Positions 1 to 9,966 of a DNA stretch of 64,000 nt are shown piece after piece (within the stretch, counting starts at the first letter, position 1; the number at the start of each line of letters is the position of its first letter). The DNA comes from Longimicrobiales bacterium (GTDB lineage Bacteria > Gemmatimonadota > Gemmatimonadetes > Longimicrobiales > Gaopeijiaceae): positions 1,696,001-1,760,000 of the forward strand of contig CBDDCX010000008.1 in NCBI GenBank assembly GCA_965226375.1, written 5' to 3'. A program made the position numbers and the translations under genes. Below the pieces are notes generated by a model that saw only the letters and a program-made list of their open reading frames with translations, made no database searches and was not told the DNA's origin.

Positions 1-27
1 GAGCCTCCATGGGCGGCCCGCATTTTT

Positions 28-132
28 CGTGGAAAGTACCACGGCCCAGCGCGGGGGTTAAGACCGCGAGTGAGTCAAGAAGTCGGAAGGTGCGGATCGT
101 CCGAAACTCCGACCATGACCAACAAGATGGAG
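28..132 (+). promoter_or_regulatory. Candidate structured 5' leader RNA of csp gene (copy 1)
   Basis: Three hairpins (28-43, 50-68, 74-119) followed by a GGAG RBS. The same order and core sequence occur upstream of the second csp (6017-6120). Confidence 0.6.
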
Positions 133-139
133 CAAGATG

Positions 140-346
140 ATGCGTACCAAAGGCACTGTGAAGTGGTTCAACGACCAAAAGGGCTTCGGCTTTATCACCC
201 CGGAGGATGGCAGCAGAGACCTGTTCGTTCATCATTCGGCGATTCAGGCCGAGGGCTTCAAGTCTCTCGCCGAGGGCGAGAGCGTTGAGTTCGACGTGGT
301 AGAGGGCCAGAAGGGCCCCGCCGCGGAGAACGTTCAGAAGCTCTAA
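140..346 (+). CDS. cspA: Cold-shock protein (CspA family)
   Basis: GTVKWFN, KGFGFI (RNP1), LFVHHSAI (RNP2) and [16 protein letters not shown] at 137/140, GGAG at 129-132. Confidence 0.97.
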
Positions 347-377
347 AGCCTCTAGGGCCGTATGGCCTATAGCAGGT

Positions 378-417
378 AGCGGGCCACCCCGGGCATCGGG
401 GTGGCCCGCTTTTTTTT
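378..417 (+). terminator. Rho-independent terminator after csp
   Basis: AGCGGGCCACCCCG / CGGGGTGGCCCGCT stem followed by a T run. Confidence 0.9.
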
Positions 418-515
418 CTCCGGCCGGTGTGCCCGGCCGCGGTTGCCGCCCAATCCCTTCTCGGACACGTTGGTCCCGTCCCGAAGAGCCCCTTGGCCGA
501 CCTGAAATCAAACAG

Positions 516-1496
516 ATGGCTCACATTGAGAACCCCATACTCCCGTTCATTCGGTCCCAGGGCCAAATCGTGCTGGACGGGGGACTCGCCACGGCCTTGG
601 AGGCACGTGGACATGACCTGAACAACGATCTCTGGTCCGCCAAGGTCTTGCTCGAGGATCCCCGGGCGATCCGCGAGGTGCACGGCGACTTTCTGACTGC
701 CGGGGCCGACTGTATCACGACGGCCACGTATCAGGCCACCTTCTCCGGATTCGCGGCCAGGGGCCTGAGTGACGAGGCGGCGGGGGGGCTTCTGCTGCAG
801 GCCGTCGACCTGGCCGTTGAGGCCCGTGACACGTTCTGGGCCGATCCCGCGAACCGACACGGTCGCCTGCGTCCGCTCGTGGCGGCCAGTGTCGGACCCT
901 ACGGGGCGTTCCTCGCGGACCGATCCGAGTACGATGGAAAATACGGGCTCGACGCCGGCGAGCTGCGCGCATTCCACGAGAGACGCTGGCGGGTATTGGC
1001 CGACAGCCGAGCGGATCTATTGGCGTGCGAGACCCTGCCCTCTCGCCTGGAGGCGGAGGTACTCCTCAGCCTTCTCCGTGATACGCCAAACCGCTGGGCG
1101 TGGATGAGTTTCAGCTGCCGAGATGGAGCCCATCTGAATGATGGCACTCGACTCGAGCACGCCGCCGAACTGTGCGCCTCCGAGCTGCAGGTCGCCGCAA
1201 TCGGCGTCAACTGTACCGCGCCCGCTCACATTTCGTCGCTGATCGGGGAGATTCGTAAGGCCAGGCCGAAACCGATCATCGTCTATCCGAACTCGGGGGA
1301 GACGTACGACGCCAAGAACAAGGAGTGGGCCCCGTCCACAGCCGTCATCGGCTTTGCGACCCTTGTGGAGGAGTGGGCCGAGCTGGGGGCCACCGGGATA
1401 GGCGGATGCTGCCGCATTCAGCCCCCCGACATCGTGGAGGTAAGGACCAGACTCGTCCCGGGAGCAACGTCGGCGGATCGGGCTCACCATGACTGA
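516..1496 (+). CDS. mmuM: Homocysteine S-methyltransferase
   Basis: LDGGLATALE, LWSA, AASVGPYGA, LACETLP, GVNC, YPNSGE and the Zn-binding IGGCCR. ATG at 516 chosen as start. Confidence 0.92.
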   Translation: MAHIENPILPFIRSQGQIVLDGGLATALEARGHDLNNDLWSAKVLLEDPRAIREVHGDFLTAGADCITTATYQATFSGFAARGLSDEAAGGLLLQAVDLAVEARDTFWADPANRHGRLRPLVAASVGPYGAFLADRSEYDGKYGLDAGELRAFHERRWRVLADSRADLLACETLPSRLEAEVLLSLLRDTPNRWAWMSFSCRDGAHLNDGTRLEHAAELCASELQVAAIGVNCTAPAHISSLIGEIRKARPKPIIVYPNSGETYDAKNKEWAPSTAVIGFATLVEEWAELGATGIGGCCRIQPPDIVEVRTRLVPGATSADRAHHD

Positions 1497-1953
1497 GTGC
1501 CTGCCGGGCATCTTCGTAGATGCAGACGCCTGTCCCGTAAAGGACGAAGTCTACCGGGTCGCCCAGCGGTATGGTATCGCAGTGAAGCTGGTCTCCAATT
1601 CCTGGCTGCGAACTCCCCGAGAGGACTGGCTCGAGTTGGTGATCGTGGACGGAGAGCTCGACGCCGCGGACGCCTGGATTGTCGAACACGTGTCGATGAA
1701 CGACATCGTGGTCACGGCCGACATCCCCCTGGCTGCGGAGTGTCTGAAGAAGGGGGCTCGTGTACTGGGCCCCCGGGGACGACCCTTTACGGAAGAGTCC
1801 ATCGGTGGCGCTCTGGCGACCAGAGAGCTCATGTCCCAACTCCGCGACATGGGCGAGGTGACCGGAGGACCCCCTCCGTTTGAAAAACGAGACCGCTCCC
1901 AGTTCCTCCAGGCCCTGGACCAGATGATTCAGGCGGTGCGTCGCGCAAAGTAG
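1489..1953 (+). CDS. YaiI/YqxD family protein (UPF0178)
   Basis: IFVDADACPVKDE, DAADAWI and DIVVTADIPLA. Confidence 0.92.
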   Translation: MTECLPGIFVDADACPVKDEVYRVAQRYGIAVKLVSNSWLRTPREDWLELVIVDGELDAADAWIVEHVSMNDIVVTADIPLAAECLKKGARVLGPRGRPFTEESIGGALATRELMSQLRDMGEVTGGPPPFEKRDRSQFLQALDQMIQAVRRAK

Positions 1954-2036
1954 GGGGATTACACGTCCGCGAACCGTAGAATACGGGGGCCAGAGGGGTC
2001 CCCGACGGGGAATCCGCGATACTGCGGGCCCCTCGC

Positions 2037-2202
2037 CTAGTGTCCTGTCCCAGAAATACGGTGCCGCACCGAGGGGACCGAAGCGCCGCCCTGGCAAGGC
2101 GAGACGACGAGGGATAGCACCGCTATCTTGAGGAGGAACAACGCCGCCAGGGTGGATGCAGCGGTTCCCGAATGCCGGCGTATTTCTGGGACACGACACT
2201 AG
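2037..2202. mobile_element. MITE-like palindromic element, copy 1 (166 bp, CTAG-bounded)
   Basis: 24-bp terminal inverted repeats CTAGTGTC(C/G)TGTCCCAGAAATACG. A homologous copy lies at 50866-51030. Non-coding. Confidence 0.75.
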
Positions 2203-4490
2203 ATCCGACTCAACCAGGTGAGCTTTACGATTGCCGCACGACTCTCCGGAATCCCGGGGATACCGCCCCCGGAACGCCCGTCCTGAAAGACGATGAACAG
2301 GTCGCTGGCCGGCCGATATTGGTACTCGATCCTCGCGCTCGTGGTGAGACGCTGATCCAGCGTGTTGTACTGGATGCGTAGGGTCGAGGACAAACGGGTG
2401 GAGAAGGCGTATCCAACCCCCAAGGACGCCACATCGGAGACGAACCGTCCCCCCGGGAGTTCCACGTCACTCCGCGTCAGACCGAGATCGAGCCTCGTAC
2501 CTGTGCCCGAGACGACACGAGTCGCGAGGGTCGCGGTCAGGATCCGGCCCTCGTATACGCGCTGACGAACCAGATGGGCGCTCCCGCTGATGCGGCGAGC
2601 CGGGCTCGTCGTCAGCATCAGACCCAGAGTTACGGATTCGTAGTCACCGGCGGATACCGGCACCCGGCCCCCCAACGCAAAGCCCTCATCGAGGCGAGTC
2701 CGCCCAGACTTGAAGTACGGCGTGACGTTCTCGCCGGAGTCCCAGGTGACGGAGAAGGCGGGCCCAGCTACCCAGTCCTGAAACTCACCGGTGGTGCGAG
2801 TCTGGTATTGCCCCACGATCATCAAGTCCGTGCGCCGGAGTCCCGCCACACGAGGTCTGGCGGTGAGCCTCAGCAGCCCATCGTTGCGACGGATGTCGGT
2901 GCGGGTGACGAAGCCCAAATCCGCTCGCACACCAGGTTCGATGTAGAGATGTTGCCCCGTGAAGCCCAATCTGGATTTCTGGTACCCCACGCCCAGACGA
3001 TACGCCGACGTCTCCCTGTTCTGGGAGGGATTATCGGTGCGCACGGCCATGCCCTGAATGTTCAAGCTGCCCGTGGGCCAGAGGGACCAGTCGACGCCGC
3101 CGGCGACGTTGGTAGTATCTGGTCCGGCGACCCGGGTGAGCATTGCGCCGAGGTATCCCGCTTTCCCCACGTCCCGCTTGAGCCGCGCCACCGTCTGGTT
3201 CATACGGGGACCGCCGAAGGCCCGATCGGTCACCGTATGGAGGAACCCCACGGTCTGACGCCCCGCGCGGCCCGACAGCCGCGGGCCACCGAGTAGGGGG
3301 ACCGGACCGTGATCCGACATGCCGATACGTCGAGAAAAGAAGAGCAGAAACGGGGGCGGCTCCGCACTCCCACGCACACCGAATTCGAAGACCCCGCTGT
3401 TCTCCAGGAAGAACTCCCTCTTCTCCGGCAAGAAGAGGTCGAACCGTGTGAGGTTCACCTGCTCGTCGTCCACCTCGGCCTGGGCGAAGTCCGCGTTCAC
3501 GGTGCCGTCGATGACAAGCCCGGGACGCACCTCGTACTTGAGGTCCAAACCCAGATCCATTTGGCCCGTGGTGCCCGTGCCACGCTCCGCGGATGTCGCG
3601 TCGACGCCGGAGCCGGGCCCATGCTTGACGTCGGATCCTCGATGACTCCCTTCCGCGAGCACATAAGGCTTGACGTCTACGCCCACGCCTCGGGGAGCGG
3701 CCACGGTAACACCCCGAAGATCTCCGGCCAGACTCACACGGACGAACCCTTCGCTCTCGGGTCGCCACGAGCGCCACAGGGCCTGCTCGTTCTTCCTCCG
3801 AATGGAGCGATAGACGTTGAATCCCAGCGTTCCGTCCGTCCCACCGGTCGATCGCAGAGTCCGGAGTGGAATGGCGAACTCCGCCGTCCACCCTTCGGCG
3901 TGACGTCGAGCCGACACGGCCCATACGGCGCGCCAGCTGATGTTGATATCGCGACCCTCGTCGCCAATGTGCGCGTCGAACTCCGCCCCGTTGGGATTCG
4001 TGGCGAAGACCACTGCGTTGCGGTGGTCGTGGAAGGGATCGATGAGCAGGGCGATGGCGTCGTCACCGGCGAAGTCGAGGCCACCGTTACCATCCGACTC
4101 CATCACCCGATCTCGCTGTAGGATTCGGCTGATGATCCGATCCGGATCCGTGTCGAAGGCTTCGACTCCGACGTAGAGGGTCGTGCTGTCGAAGACCACG
4201 CGAATGGTCGTGACCTCGGTGGCAGGGTGCCCCTCCTCGGGCTCCTCCTGTCGCAGATCACCGAATGGAAGAGCCGACCGCCACACCGGCTCCCCGAGGC
4301 TTCCGTCCACCCGGATCTCGGCTCCGCGGGGAACCCTGACGGCCAACGCCGCGTCGATGGTCGCATCGTGCGGCACAGGCGCCGTGAAGCGATCGGCCTG
4401 TTGCGCTTCGACTTCGACCGCAAGCTGTAACGGCGCCCACGCGCAGACGGCGATAAGAACCAGGGCCCGGCGGATCACCTTCAGAGTCAC
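2199..4490 (-). CDS. DUF5916 / CBM9-like sugar-binding domain protein, probably outer-membrane or secreted
   Basis: Signal-like N-terminus, IRVDGSLGEPVW, GWTAEFAIPL, TVNADFAQAEVDDEQVNLTRFDLFLPEKREFFLE, FFSRRIG. Start is approximate (GTG 4490 or 4478). Confidence 0.8.
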   Translation of the reverse strand: MTLKVIRRALVLIAVCAWAPLQLAVEVEAQQADRFTAPVPHDATIDAALAVRVPRGAEIRVDGSLGEPVWRSALPFGDLRQEEPEEGHPATEVTTIRVVFDSTTLYVGVEAFDTDPDRIISRILQRDRVMESDGNGGLDFAGDDAIALLIDPFHDHRNAVVFATNPNGAEFDAHIGDEGRDINISWRAVWAVSARRHAEGWTAEFAIPLRTLRSTGGTDGTLGFNVYRSIRRKNEQALWRSWRPESEGFVRVSLAGDLRGVTVAAPRGVGVDVKPYVLAEGSHRGSDVKHGPGSGVDATSAERGTGTTGQMDLGLDLKYEVRPGLVIDGTVNADFAQAEVDDEQVNLTRFDLFLPEKREFFLENSGVFEFGVRGSAEPPPFLLFFSRRIGMSDHGPVPLLGGPRLSGRAGRQTVGFLHTVTDRAFGGPRMNQTVARLKRDVGKAGYLGAMLTRVAGPDTTNVAGGVDWSLWPTGSLNIQGMAVRTDNPSQNRETSAYRLGVGYQKSRLGFTGQHLYIEPGVRADLGFVTRTDIRRNDGLLRLTARPRVAGLRRTDLMIVGQYQTRTTGEFQDWVAGPAFSVTWDSGENVTPYFKSGRTRLDEGFALGGRVPVSAGDYESVTLGLMLTTSPARRISGSAHLVRQRVYEGRILTATLATRVVSGTGTRLDLGLTRSDVELPGGRFVSDVASLGVGYAFSTRLSSTLRIQYNTLDQRLTTSARIEYQYRPASDLFIVFQDGRSGGGIPGIPESRAAIVKLTWLSRI

Positions 4491-4530
4491 CTGAGACCGG
4501 CTCCCGAAGCCAGCCGAACAGAGGCCGTGC

Positions 4531-5319
4531 TCAAGACGGGAACAGCTCGAGGAGGGAGGCTCGCCACTTCTGCTCCAGGGCACCGACATCCGCCTCGTCC
4601 GCTCCGTATGTGGACAACCATACGCTGGCGGAGCCTTCACAGAGCTGCGCCCTGAACAGGCCGTCGTTCCAGCCGTCTACGGTGCCCGAGAACTGCCACG
4701 GTGGCTGCCCAAAAGCCACGACCCCCTCGAGCATCTCGCCCGTTGCCGTTTGGATCCCGTACCTACCCCCACGGGTCAGACCCGCAAGGCCGCTGGATCC
4801 GAACCAACCACCCGCCTCGGTCATCCTTGTCCACGCCTCCTCGTCATCACAGCCGTATGCCGCATGCGCCGAAGCTACAATCCGACGCTGGCCCGGGTGG
4901 CGCTCCAGATAGTGGCGAAGGCCGTTGAGCTCGAAGTCCCAACCGCGACCCCAGGCCTCGTACATGTAGTCCCACTCCGCGTCCTTCCCGAAACCGGAAC
5001 TCACCACGCGGAGGACCGTGCCGCCGCCTTGGCCCTGGAGATAAAAGTCGGTGGCGATCTGGAGGGCCGCGCCTTTGCTAGGCCCCGTTCGGAGGTGCTC
5101 CTCGGGTTCCCAGACTTCGATGGGTGCGGTCTCGTCTCCGGCGTCCGACCAGCTCATCCAAACCGAGCCGCCGGCCCCTGGCACCACCCCCGCGTTCAGT
5201 GGGAACCACCTCGTGAGCGCCTTCCATACCCACGCCAACGGTGCCTCGATCTCGATCTCCCGCTCGACCGCGCGGATTTCCTGATCTTGCGAGCCTCCGA
5301 ATTGTTCCTCCGTACTCAT
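4531..5319 (-). CDS. SRPBCC (Aha1-like) domain protein
   Basis: VEREIEIEAP..VWKALT..WFP and GTVLRVVSSGF..GW..L..LRHYLE. ATGA overlap with the upstream regulator. Confidence 0.8.
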   Translation of the reverse strand: MSTEEQFGGSQDQEIRAVEREIEIEAPLAWVWKALTRWFPLNAGVVPGAGGSVWMSWSDAGDETAPIEVWEPEEHLRTGPSKGAALQIATDFYLQGQGGGTVLRVVSSGFGKDAEWDYMYEAWGRGWDFELNGLRHYLERHPGQRRIVASAHAAYGCDDEEAWTRMTEAGGWFGSSGLAGLTRGGRYGIQTATGEMLEGVVAFGQPPWQFSGTVDGWNDGLFRAQLCEGSASVWLSTYGADEADVGALEQKWRASLLELFPS

Positions 5320-5933
5320 GAGTCCTCCTCCTGGAGATCGCTCCCTGCACCGTCTTCCGAGGGAGCCGGGTACGAACCGGCGATGACCCGGAACCGCCGA
5401 CCGTGGGGTTCATCTTCGTCGTGGTACTTGGAAACCAATCGTGCGACCGCCTGCGAGAGCTCGGTCGCGAACGCGTGCTGCTGCTCGGGTGAGGCGAAGC
5501 GGACGTCCGCTTGGAGCGTCAGTGTGGGCAGACGCTTTCCGCCCCCGCGGGCACGCTCGCGCTGCTCGGCAACCTCCCGGATAACCTGTGCCGCCACAGC
5601 CACCAGGTACGCGCTCGACGCCCGGTCTCGGATTGATGCGGGATCCACCGCCAGGTCGCCGAGAGTGGCAGGGCTGATCAGATAGGATCGGGCCACCGCT
5701 CGGACCAATCGCTCGGTACAGTTCCTCACCTTGCGCTCTCCAACCCGCTCGAGTAGCCCCTGTGCTTCCAACTGGCGGACGTGGTAGTTCAGCTTCTGAC
5801 GGGGTATCCCGAGTCGTCGAGCCAGGCCGGCCGCCGAGTCGGGCTCCCCCAACTCCGCCAGAATCTTGAGTCGCAATGGATGAAGAACCGATGCGGCACG
5901 ATCTCCATCCTCAATCACATGCACTGGGACCAC
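5316..5933 (-). CDS. ArsR-like helix-turn-helix transcriptional regulator
   Basis: HPLRLKILAEL..PDSAAGLARRLGIPRQKLNYHVRQLE..GLLE. Confidence 0.85.
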   Translation of the reverse strand: MVPVHVIEDGDRAASVLHPLRLKILAELGEPDSAAGLARRLGIPRQKLNYHVRQLEAQGLLERVGERKVRNCTERLVRAVARSYLISPATLGDLAVDPASIRDRASSAYLVAVAAQVIREVAEQRERARGGGKRLPTLTLQADVRFASPEQQHAFATELSQAVARLVSKYHDEDEPHGRRFRVIAGSYPAPSEDGAGSDLQEEDS

Positions 5934-6016
5934 CGGGGGGGCAACGCAAAAGACTTGACCGGGAGCACGCGGGCAGGCACCGTTGGTTCACCCTCGACCC
6001 GACGTCGAGGATTTTT

Positions 6017-6120
6017 CCGTGTCGCTACCGGCACGGCGCCCAGCGCGGGGGAGTTTCCGCGCGAGTCATGTAGTCGGGAGGTGCGGTTCATCCGGACTCC
6101 GACAGTGACCACCAAAGGAG
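6017..6120 (+). promoter_or_regulatory. Candidate structured 5' leader RNA of csp gene (copy 2)
   Basis: Hairpins 6017-6036, 6043-6062 and 6065-6109, then AGGAG. Homologous to 28-132. Confidence 0.6.
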
Positions 6121-6127
6121 CAGGATG

Positions 6128-6337
6128 ATGCGTACCAGAGGGACAGTGAAGTGGTTCAACGATCAGAAGGGATTCGGATTTATCACGCCGGAGGACAACA
6201 GCAAGGATTGCTTTGTCCACCACTCCGCCATTCAGGCTGAGGGCTTCAAGACCCTTAACGAGGGCGACGTCGTCGAGTTCGAGATCGTTGAGGGGCAGAA
6301 GGGACCAGCCGCAGAGAACGTGGTGCGAGTCACCTGA
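6128..6337 (+). CDS. cspA: Cold-shock protein (CspA family), paralog 2
   Basis: [15 protein letters not shown] and [14 protein letters not shown] at 6125/6128, AGGAG RBS. Confidence 0.97.
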
Positions 6338-6363: not shown

Positions 6364-6404
6364 AGGGGCCGCTCCCGTCACATCGGGGCGGCCCCTTCTT
6401 TCTT
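6364..6404 (+). terminator. Rho-independent terminator after csp paralog 2
   Basis: AGGGGCCGCTCC / GGGGCGGCCCCT stem followed by TCTTTCTT. Confidence 0.75.
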
Positions 6405-8462: not shown

Positions 8463-8899
8463 AACCCAATCCCGATCTCTACGATCTCCACTTACCGACG
8501 TTGCTGGGGCCGAAGGCCCCGGTATCTTAGGAGGGTCGCGACGTTATCAACTCAACCCGACCTCTCCCTTCATGGTGATAGCTTGAAGCTAGAAGGGCAT
8601 TGGGGCCTTGTCTACCGGGAAACGGCTACATCGGAAGGACCTCTTTTGAGCCCATGGACGCTTTGATCTTCCGAGCGGCCACGGCCGCGGATCTGCCTCG
8701 TCTCGTCGAGATGCTGGCCGACGATGCGCTGGGTGCGATGAGGGAGCGCTCCGAAGATCCCCTCCCCGACGCCTACTGTGACGCGTTCGCCGCGATCGAG
8801 GCCGATCCCGCGAACGAACTCGTGGTCGCTTTGAGCGACGGGAGGCTTGTCGGCTTTCTCCAACTGACCATCATTCCCAACCTCACGTATATAGGGAGA

Positions 8900-9966
8900 A
8901 TGGGGTATTGCCTTAAGTCCACCGCCCACTACATGTTGTGGTCATGGCGGTTCCGGCTTCTCAGCTCCGTGGCGGCGTGGACTATCCCCGTACGCGGCTG
9001 GAGCTGGACGAGTTCTTCCCCGACGATGCGGCATGCCTGGAGTACGTGGAGGGTCTGCGCTGGCCGGAAGGGTTTGTGTGCGTGGGCTGTGGCGGGTTGG
9101 GAGAGGTCTGGCGAGCATCGCGGGGGCGTCTCGTCTGCCCACACTGTCGAAGGCAGACCTCGGTGCTGGCGGGAACCGTGTTCCACCGCACGCGCTCGCC
9201 CCTGCGTCTGTGGTTTCTCGCTGCCTGGGAGCTCACGAGCCAGAAATACGGAGCCAATGCTCTCGGGCTCCAGCGCGTGCTCGGACTGGGAAGCTACAAG
9301 ACAGCGTGGGTCTGGCTCCACAAGCTCCGCCGGGCCATGGTCCGACCGGATCGCGACCAGCTGAGCGGCGTTGTGCAAGTGGACGAGAGCTATGTCGGGG
9401 GCGTGGAGGCTGGAGTGCGGGGCCGCGAGACGATCAAGAAGGCCATCGTCGCGATCGCCGCCGAGGTCGACGGACGCAAGATCGGGAGAATACGGCTGCG
9501 TTGGGTGCCCGACCTCTCCGCTCCGGTTCTGCGAGGCTTCGTCAAGGATAGCATCGCACCGGCAAGCACGGTGCATACCGACGGATGGCCAAGCTATCAG
9601 GGACTCGCCAAACTGGGCTTTCGCCACACGGTCACGAACCTCTCGACCTCCGGCGATCCCGCTCACGTGCTCATGTCGGCCGTACATCGGGTGGCGTCTC
9701 TCCTCAAGCGCTGGGTCCTCGGAACCCTCCAAGGAGGGATCGCCCGCGAACACCTCCCCTACTATCTGGACGAGTTCACCTTTCGCTTCAACCGACGCAC
9801 ATCCCGGGCTCGCGGCCTGTTGTTCTACCGCTTGCTTGAGCAGGCTGTTCAGTGTGCTCCCACGCCAGCTTCGGCCCTTTACCTCGGCACCGGACGTGGG
9901 AAACGGCCCGCAGAGCCCCGGTAACCACTATATCTTGGGGTCGGTGGACTTAAGGGAATACCCCCT
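8900..9966 (+). mobile_element. IS1595-family insertion sequence (1067 bp)
   Basis: 24-bp TIRs A(T/G)GGGGTATT(G/C)CCTTAAGTCCACC. 8-bp TSD TAGGGAGA at 8892-8899 and 9967-9974. Confidence 0.93.
8944..9924 (+). CDS. IS1595-family transposase
   Basis: RWPEGFVCVGC..CPHC Zn ribbon, VQVDESYVGG, VHTDGWPSY and YLDEFTFRFNRR. Confidence 0.95.
   Translation: MAVPASQLRGGVDYPRTRLELDEFFPDDAACLEYVEGLRWPEGFVCVGCGGLGEVWRASRGRLVCPHCRRQTSVLAGTVFHRTRSPLRLWFLAAWELTSQKYGANALGLQRVLGLGSYKTAWVWLHKLRRAMVRPDRDQLSGVVQVDESYVGGVEAGVRGRETIKKAIVAIAAEVDGRKIGRIRLRWVPDLSAPVLRGFVKDSIAPASTVHTDGWPSYQGLAKLGFRHTVTNLSTSGDPAHVLMSAVHRVASLLKRWVLGTLQGGIAREHLPYYLDEFTFRFNRRTSRARGLLFYRLLEQAVQCAPTPASALYLGTGRGKRPAEPR

Follow-up and report, generated by a model that had tools for sequence, protein, structure and literature searches.

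Two cold-shock protein (csp) genes lie on the forward strand near the beginning of the window, the whole 64,000-nucleotide stretch of DNA analysed here. Each is preceded by a leader with three hairpins, P1 to P3. The genes, their leaders and the hairpins that follow them are:

28–43, forward strand: P1 hairpin of leader 1, 28–32 pairing with 39–43; stem present in the sequence, which varies across the family
50–68, forward strand: P2 of leader 1, 50–54 with 64–68; stem present in the sequence
74–119, forward strand: P3 switch hairpin of leader 1 (ON state), 74–77 with 116–119, 82–86 with 109–113, 93–95 with 101–103
120–148, forward strand: A/C-rich linker, SD and start of leader 1; SD 129–132, ATGATG 137–142, start codon 140–142, codons 2–3 143–148
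140–346, forward strand: cold-shock protein gene 1 (PF00313, E 2e-32)
378–418, forward strand: intrinsic terminator after csp gene 1, with 15 pairs and a U run
6017–6036, forward strand: P1 hairpin of leader 2, 6017–6024 with 6029–6036; stem present in the sequence
6043–6062, forward strand: P2 of leader 2, 6044–6048 with 6057–6061, or 6043–6048 with 6057–6062 as a pseudoknot stem
6065–6109, forward strand: P3 switch hairpin of leader 2 (ON state), 6065–6068 with 6106–6109, 6073–6077 with 6099–6103, 6084–6086 with 6092–6094
6110–6136, forward strand: linker, SD and start of leader 2; SD 6117–6120, ATGATG 6125–6130, start codon 6128–6130, then codons 2–3
6128–6337, forward strand: cold-shock protein gene 2 (PF00313, E 3e-31)
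6365–6402, forward strand: terminator-like hairpin with a U-rich tail after csp gene 2

The earlier note on this DNA proposed a three-hairpin architecture common to both csp leaders, and every stem that it named is present in both sequences. The limits it set, 28–132, are too narrow, as the element runs further on both sides. The ATGATG with which it ended both leaders is present as well; the likelier start is the second ATG (140 and 6128), because it is spaced 7 nt from the SD and the relatives begin M-R-T.

A blastn search within the 4.2-Mb source genome matched leader 1 to leader 2 with an E value of about 1e-11 and found no other match better than E 0.1. From P1 to the start codon, 82 of 117 columns are identical in a global alignment (70%, compared with 47% for shuffled sequences), and the region of the pseudoknot and P3 is 76% identical. 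The earlier note had proposed to weigh leader identity against synonymous-site identity; only 5 of the 20 four-fold synonymous sites of the two csp paralogs agree, and the leaders, at 70–76%, are higher. Single-sequence folding stability is not significant (z -1.9 for leader 1 and -0.6 for leader 2), and the case for structure therefore rests on comparison. That comparison indicates that the three hairpins are real and under selection. Downstream of the genes, the 3′ terminators of both paralogs have a similar stem and a common CATCGGGG segment, and the 3′ regions are 59% identical, compared with 46% when shuffled. The terminators at 378–418 and 6365–6402 are possibly a conserved 3′ element.

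We asked how far the leader extends beyond this genome. The csp gene set comprises 171 genes: the best 80 of 573 protein relatives, 90 matches from 41 related genomes and the three other csp genes of the source genome. It is biased toward proteins close to the query, and within the best 80 of 573 relatives 75 of 79 loci belong to Gemmatimonadota. An anchored parse, scored solely on the consensus and on P3 pairing, was run on 170 csp genes. The P3 core, with consensus GUCGG-NN-RGU-R-CGG-loop-CCG-N-ACY-CCGAC, was found in 117 of these and was absent in 40; 13 ambiguous rows were dropped. Comparative tests used 82 representatives with less than 80% identity.

A covariance model was built from the core alone, without the SD or coding sequence. 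At E < 0.1 it finds exactly the two window leaders in the source genome; by both parse and core model, the motif is absent from the two remaining csp genes. With 40 candidates scored per genome, the model has a match at E ≤ 0.05 in 82 of the 151 genomes from the phylum. Of the 124 non-self matches we inspected 69. A csp gene follows directly downstream of all 59 that have E < 0.01, and of 1 of 10 between E 0.02 and 0.045, indicating that some of the 82 genome matches are due to chance. Among the chance matches are the two found in other classes, as well as three in the family to which the window belongs, where the element is patchy. The earlier note described the leader in the two paralogs. 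It is indeed conserved in both, and its range spans the class. Among 80 genomes of another phylum (that of G186, Thermoanaerobaculia), two of six inspected matches are upstream of csp. We also observe the switch core before csp in two genomes outside Gemmatimonadota, at L244 (G266) and at L249 (G259), the latter on a contig of more than 3.6 Mb.

No Rfam 15 family matches the 64 kb at the gathering score, in agreement with the earlier note's view of a candidate new RNA. At E ≤ 10, nothing overlaps the leaders besides RF01766, the E. coli cspA family, which likewise describes a csp mRNA with alternative pairing between UTR and coding region. Membership in RF01766 was rejected: the scores of 61.1 and 44.0 bits are both below the gathering score of 78, and by eye the alignment covers mostly the coding region and the 3′ terminator, skipping about 107 UTR positions of the model. 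A literature search, outside which most subscription journals fall, found no relevant paper on a csp leader of Gemmatimonadota. Neither Gemmatimonas nor csp is named in the main text of a 50-genome survey of ncRNAs (PMC11109978); its supplement might bear on novelty. We conclude that the leader is a real, uncatalogued cis-regulatory RNA family of Gemmatimonadota csp genes.

Three low-share RNA libraries cover 7, 6 and 8 of 30 bins, with the greatest depth at the two csp genes; over the window, the cover comes mostly from other organisms. One RNA contig spans 6038–6232, which includes the pseudoknot, P3 and the coding start, with 4 differences in 195 letters, and is of a kind that cannot reveal the start, end, strand or level of a transcript.

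In leader 1, P3 contains an anti-start strand (89–101) and an anti-SD strand (107–111). The 5′ strand of P3 together with its loop (89–101) is complementary to the AUG and codons 2–3 (136–148), and the 3′ strand (107–111) is complementary to the SD (128–132). These pairings nest as one long hairpin, the OFF helix, which excludes P3 and buries the SD, the AUG and codons 2–3:

89–148, forward strand: OFF helix of leader 1, 89–94 with 143–148, 96–101 with 136–141, 107–111 with 128–132
6080–6136, forward strand: OFF helix of leader 2, 6080–6085 with 6131–6136, 6088–6093 with 6123–6128, 6097–6100 with 6117–6120

We compared how each core pairs with the start region of its own gene and with those of others. 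The predicted core/start-region duplex is -22.5 kcal/mol for cognate and -18.0 for non-cognate pairs, the cognate being better in 73 of 82 leaders (permutation p 0.0002). As controls, two coding windows matched in length and relatedness gave no effect (cognate better in 39 and 46 of 82). Compared with the nearest relative by coding sequence, the leader's own start region was better in 59 cases, worse in 22 and tied in one. In 29 held-out leaders, the cognate start region was better in 24, against 13 for each of the two controls.

We also counted compensatory changes on a MAFFT alignment of 77 rows (75 representatives and the two window leaders), which had been fitted to neither of the folds. 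In it 87% of the ON pairs are formed and 15 two-sided changes occur, compared with 5.6 after shuffling; for the OFF pairs the values are 79% and 72, compared with 34.5, in shuffles that ignore relatedness. Slid registers of the OFF helix are 29–54% formed. The outer P3 stem covaries too (69/111). The wider alignment thus contains the covariation for which the earlier note had proposed a test, and the note's claim of a structured, lineage-restricted leader kept by selection is supported by paralog identity, family matches, covariation and the lack of an Rfam family.

Individual positions link the leader to the codons. A leader C at the first OFF position, which breaks the P3 pair, goes with G at the wobble position of Thr3 (8/9 vs 13/58). 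In held-out rows this C-G link alone is not significant (3/6 vs 7/19, p 0.65), and the G-C link is (11/14 vs 2/11, p 0.005). A leader G goes with the Arg2 codon CGC (8/19 vs 5/73). CGT encodes Arg2 in 66 of 78 genes, compared with 17 of 102 Arg codons at other positions of these genes; csp genes lacking the motif often have CGT at codon 2 too (17/35). Among five listed genes with Thr-to-Ser at codon 3, the change is mirrored in the leader in three. In L091, L099 and L109 the SD has an additional A, matched by an additional U of the anti-SD (GGAAGU with ACUUCC), and in L071, L101 and L109 a CGG-to-CCG change is present in all three strands. RNA pairing in this leader constrains synonymous codons and probably also N-terminal residues of Csp. 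Much of the SD pairing is invariant and hence uninformative as covariation.

Conceivably P3 alone is real, and near-palindromic GTAC words, together with GC content and common descent, produce the OFF complementarity incidentally. GUACG and CGUAC are nearly self-complementary, and tree-based independent contrasts over 186 coding columns had no power (one or two pairs on supported branches), so that shared ancestry is controlled by the nearest-neighbour and held-out tests only. Both of those tests are positive, however, the equally related coding-region controls lack the cognate advantage, and there are changes that break P3 while keeping the OFF helix, as well as mirrored SD indels. We regard this explanation as most improbable. 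Instead, computation and covariation point to two mutually exclusive folds, one sequestering the SD and start codon and the other sequestering the anti-SD. The stems described in the earlier note stand, but they are not a static three-hairpin fold: P3 is one of two exclusive states.

The two folds appear to be closely balanced. The anchor pairs of both are possible in only 63 of 82 leaders, in which the median of E(ON) − E(OFF) lies between -0.3 and +0.5 kcal/mol from 10 to 45°C. The predicted energies are within 3 kcal/mol of each other in about half of the leaders able to form both, and 21 of 82 leaders prefer neither named state at 37°C. In a folding model, both window leaders have an ON probability of about 1 and an OFF probability of 0 until codon 3 is transcribed. 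With codon 3 present, OFF rises to 0.76 at 37°C or 0.37 at 15°C in leader 1, and to about 1.0 in leader 2. The direct-path barrier, an upper bound, is about 19 kcal/mol at 37°C and 23–24 at 15°C in both window leaders. The best predicted fold of leader 1 is ON at 10–20°C and OFF at 30–45°C; leader 2 is predicted to be OFF at every temperature. An equilibrium thermometer common to the family is not supported: between 10 and 45°C, the ON probability falls in 10 of 82 leaders, while in 9 it rises. Control by kinetics or by a chaperone is therefore the likelier reading, and cold kinetic trapping of the ON fold is plausible from the modelled barriers.

We favour, with moderate confidence, a bistable translational switch that starts ON, whose refolding is slowed by cold and sped up by Csp, and to which an upstream terminator-like hairpin, P0, adds a read-through step. 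P3 would form first during transcription, hiding the anti-SD and anti-start strands and leaving the SD and AUG open in the A-rich linker. After codon 3 emerges, these strands could pair with the SD, AUG and codons 2–3 in a fold of about equal stability. The ON state would permit initiation and refolding to OFF would stop it. Comparison and computation support both folds, their exclusiveness, the energy balance and the predicted folding order. By analogy with the csp leaders of E. coli and S. aureus, cold would trap ON kinetically, and warmth together with accumulated Csp chaperone would melt P3 toward OFF, giving cold induction with negative feedback. The trigger, the Csp feedback and termination are those parts of the scheme that we infer by analogy.

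The comparison with known leaders draws on parts of the papers cited. For the 5′ UTR RNA thermometers of E. coli cspB, cspG and cspI, a two-state logic has been shown experimentally (PMC13271884). The Gemmatimonadota leader has the same two-fold logic, the thermal response being experimental in E. coli and proposed by analogy here; the likeness drawn here is one of mechanism. In S. aureus, too, two paralogous leaders, those of cspB and cspC, have an open and a locked fold that exclude each other; the anti-RBS lies in the hairpin of the open state, as the anti-SD does in P3 here, and a Csp paralog favours the locked fold (PMC8034633). The S. aureus switch sequence occurs in Staphylococcus only. 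Its hairpin loop carries a UUUGUUU site for CspA, to which nothing in the P3 loops of Gemmatimonadota corresponds. Alternative folds have already been proposed in PMC8034633 as widespread among csp leaders, which limits the surprise. Overall, the Gemmatimonadota leader probably works like these cold-shock RNA switches of E. coli and Staphylococcus. The csp leader conformational switch is a kind already known, and this family of it is uncatalogued.

The same two-state switch might be read by protein only (Csp, another RNA-binding protein or a helicase), temperature playing no direct part, a proposal we consider unlikely but worth keeping in view. Similarly unlikely, in our estimate, is its corollary that the ON/OFF ratio serves homeostatic autoregulation, or growth-phase or stress control. 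The lack of a family-wide temperature shift in equilibrium folding fits such an arrangement, as does the fact that many csp paralogs, S. aureus CspA for example, are not cold-induced; Csp proteins also prefer U-rich RNA (PMC8034633, in part), and might bind the U tract that follows P0. Against it, the known csp switches of the same geometry, E. coli cspB, cspG and cspI, respond to temperature in vitro in the absence of protein (PMC13271884, in part), and the predicted barrier is higher in the cold, though this is true of any RNA refolding.

Upstream of P1, both leaders have a promoter-like site and the hairpin P0:

Starting 80 nt before the window (C8:1695921), forward strand: promoter-like TTGACG-N17-GAGGTT of leader 1, by a relaxed pattern
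1–27, forward strand: 3′ part of P0 of leader 1, an imperfect terminator-like hairpin (1–22) with a U tract (23–27); the 5′ arm extends some 7 nt upstream of the window
5955–5983, forward strand: promoter-like TTGACC-N17-CACCGT of paralog 2, below the threshold of the E. coli consensus scan
5992–6016, forward strand: P0 of paralog 2, a terminator-like hairpin (5992–6010) with a U tract (6012–6016), called by the stricter scan

P0 of leader 1 has -14.5 kcal/mol by the relaxed scan and was missed by the stricter one. Of 81 leaders, 64 have a terminator-like hairpin and U tract, at a median of 118 nt before the start codon; the corresponding counts are 8 of 81 on reverse strands, 6 of 120 at other gene starts and 18 of 40 at csp genes lacking the motif. 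A TTG-type promoter-like site lies upstream of P0 in 59 of 81, the median distance from predicted start to U tract being 69 nt. The stock sigma-70 scan (E. coli consensus) found no promoter at either csp gene, and the promoter claim is that of the relaxed pattern (TTG-start plus xAnnnT), which fits 73 of 81 leaders, compared with 12 of 120 controls, and also fits 26 of 40 csp genes lacking the motif. We observe that the -10 element is (G/T)AnnnT after CCGC-like bases, not TATAAT (strict pattern in 68/111); it may reflect the housekeeping promoter of the phylum. The earlier note had raised the case of a transcription start downstream of the stems; as a sequence pattern, the promoter-like sites lie upstream of them, suggesting that the leader is the 5′ UTR of the csp mRNA.

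The upstream genes are divergent in the source genome, so P0 is not their terminator. P0 of paralog 2 begins right after the predicted transcription start site and may be merely a 5′ stabilising hairpin. At about 70 nt after the promoter, P0 probably adds a transcription-attenuation step, termination itself being a matter of analogy. An RNA antiterminator is not supported, as four flank-versus-arm tests on 90 terminators gave p 0.41–0.94; attenuation at P0 would thus need an effect of protein or temperature. Of the elements of an intrinsic attenuator, then, the terminator-like hairpin and U tract between promoter-like site and gene are found and the antiterminator helix is not. As a separate observation, CCAG 12–20 nt before P0 could pair with CTGG of the terminator 5′ arm in L135, L028, L129, L004, L078, L054 and others. 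In L029 (G039), a csp gene with P2 and P3 but no P0 of its own directly follows an upstream ORF, whose end resembles what we take to be ribosomal protein S21.

In E. coli and Salmonella, the cspA, cspB and cspG leaders couple premature termination to RBS masking, and Csp binding gives negative feedback (Delaleau 2024, as summarised in the review PMC12360218). Termination there is Rho-dependent, at a Rut site masked by the fold; the Gemmatimonadota leader instead has a separate intrinsic-type hairpin and U tract upstream of the switch, with no antiterminator pairing detected. In the parts of PMC13271884 consulted, neither an intrinsic leader terminator nor a pseudoknot, both of which this leader has in candidate form, is seen for E. 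coli cspB, cspG and cspI.

Attenuation at P0 could even be the main control, with P3 and the OFF helix serving mRNA stability or the timing of decay, which we think improbable. It is equally improbable, to our minds, that P3 and the OFF helix act as a timer that translates briefly and then closes, or as a nuclease site, rather than in regulated initiation. The frequency of the hairpin (64/81, against 6/120 and 8/81 in controls), its tight distance from the promoter (median 69 nt) and the orientation of the upstream neighbours in the source genome, which point away, are all consistent with control at P0. Moreover, Csp proteins change terminator read-through in E. coli (PMC9765468, in part) and in B. 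subtilis, where they mostly favour termination (PMC8307031, in part). However, 17 of 81 leaders have P3 but no P0, and 18 of the 40 leaders that lack P3 have P0, indicating that the two modules can be separated. What the OFF helix covers is precisely the SD and AUG, and the four tests on 90 terminators revealed no antiterminator covariation.

Between P1 and P3, the linker and the loop of P2 suggest a further fold:

44–68, forward strand: candidate H-type pseudoknot of leader 1, S1 44–47 with 55–58 and S2 (P2) 50–54 with 64–68, by pairing of its own linker and loop
6039–6062, forward strand: candidate pseudoknot of leader 2, CCC 6039–6041 with GGG 6049–6051, and P2 6043–6048 with 6057–6062

P2 was located near the core in 72 of 111 leaders, and its consensus was not found in the other 39. 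The start of the P2 loop is complementary to the linker 1–3 nt before the stem, a topology that we take to be that of an H-type pseudoknot. A leader's own linker pairs better than a non-cognate one in 59 of 72, variants other than CCC/GGG occur (for example L097, L131, L025 and L190), and the fourth pair is Watson-Crick in 22 of 42 compared with 14.6 after shuffling. Judging from these complementarities, a pseudoknot between the CCC linker and the P2 loop is possible, although the same signal would come from a transient hairpin preceding P2. The GCCCAG(C) linker of the earlier note is present in both leaders, not as a plain linker but as one strand of this candidate pseudoknot. Its role is probably to insulate or stabilise the switch. 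A P1-like hairpin is found in 64 of the 74 leaders having P2. The csp leader is modular in its sequence organisation, as far as the combinations of elements indicate. P2 with CCC/GGG but no P3 was observed in L093, L044, L059 and the second csp of L047, three of which also have P0; P3 without P2 was observed in L091, L004 and L054.

A compact pseudoknot with compensatory changes, together with strong conservation in paired regions, would also suit a ligand- or ion-binding aptamer formed by pseudoknot and P3, with the OFF helix as expression platform. We hold such a riboswitch to be very unlikely. The conserved letters are explained by their double pairing duty, while loops and linkers vary; the P2 consensus is missing from 39 of 111 leaders, visibly so in L091, L004 and L054; and the confident matches precede csp only, with no metabolic genes to hint at a ligand.

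Returning to the bistable switch, the modules might be integrated more closely than we propose. In this bolder and rather doubtful version, the terminator would be opened by Csp or cold, the pseudoknot would protect or prime the read-through mRNA, and Csp would close the switch as a negative input. Equally doubtful is the associated idea that the terminator, having no RNA antiterminator, is a positive input and yields an RNA of about 70 nt that titrates Csp. If this were true, Csp would have opposite effects on its own mRNA at the levels of transcription and translation, RNA pairing rather than protein function would fix the conserved M-R-T with which Csp begins, and the leader would be a csp control element of a type not described before.

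With this family, a class studied experimentally in a few model bacteria gains a compact conformational switch of about 75 nt that is supported by covariation and comes from a phylum that is abundant in soil and sediment and mostly uncultured. One leader joins a terminator-like hairpin, a candidate pseudoknot and a putative translational switch. With hundreds of natural variants in which the energies of the two states are almost equal, the leader is well suited to distinguishing kinetic trapping from chaperone feedback in csp cold sensing.

Finally, some features of the neighbourhood were observed. Same-strand tandem csp pairs 2–6 kb apart recur in relatives (L171 in G002, L172 in G011 and L173 in G021). 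The intervening genes differ: only a homocysteine S-methyltransferase-like gene in G002, YaiI-like and HTH genes in G011, and extra genes (DUF5916 and others) between the paralogs of the source genome (window 140–6337). At 8938–9924 of the window, an IS1595-family transposase (PF12762, PF12760) apparently interrupts an ORF starting near 8640 that is presumably GNAT-like. Elsewhere in the source genome, contig C2 carries an array of 17 tRNA genes within 2.2 kb (1703–3908).
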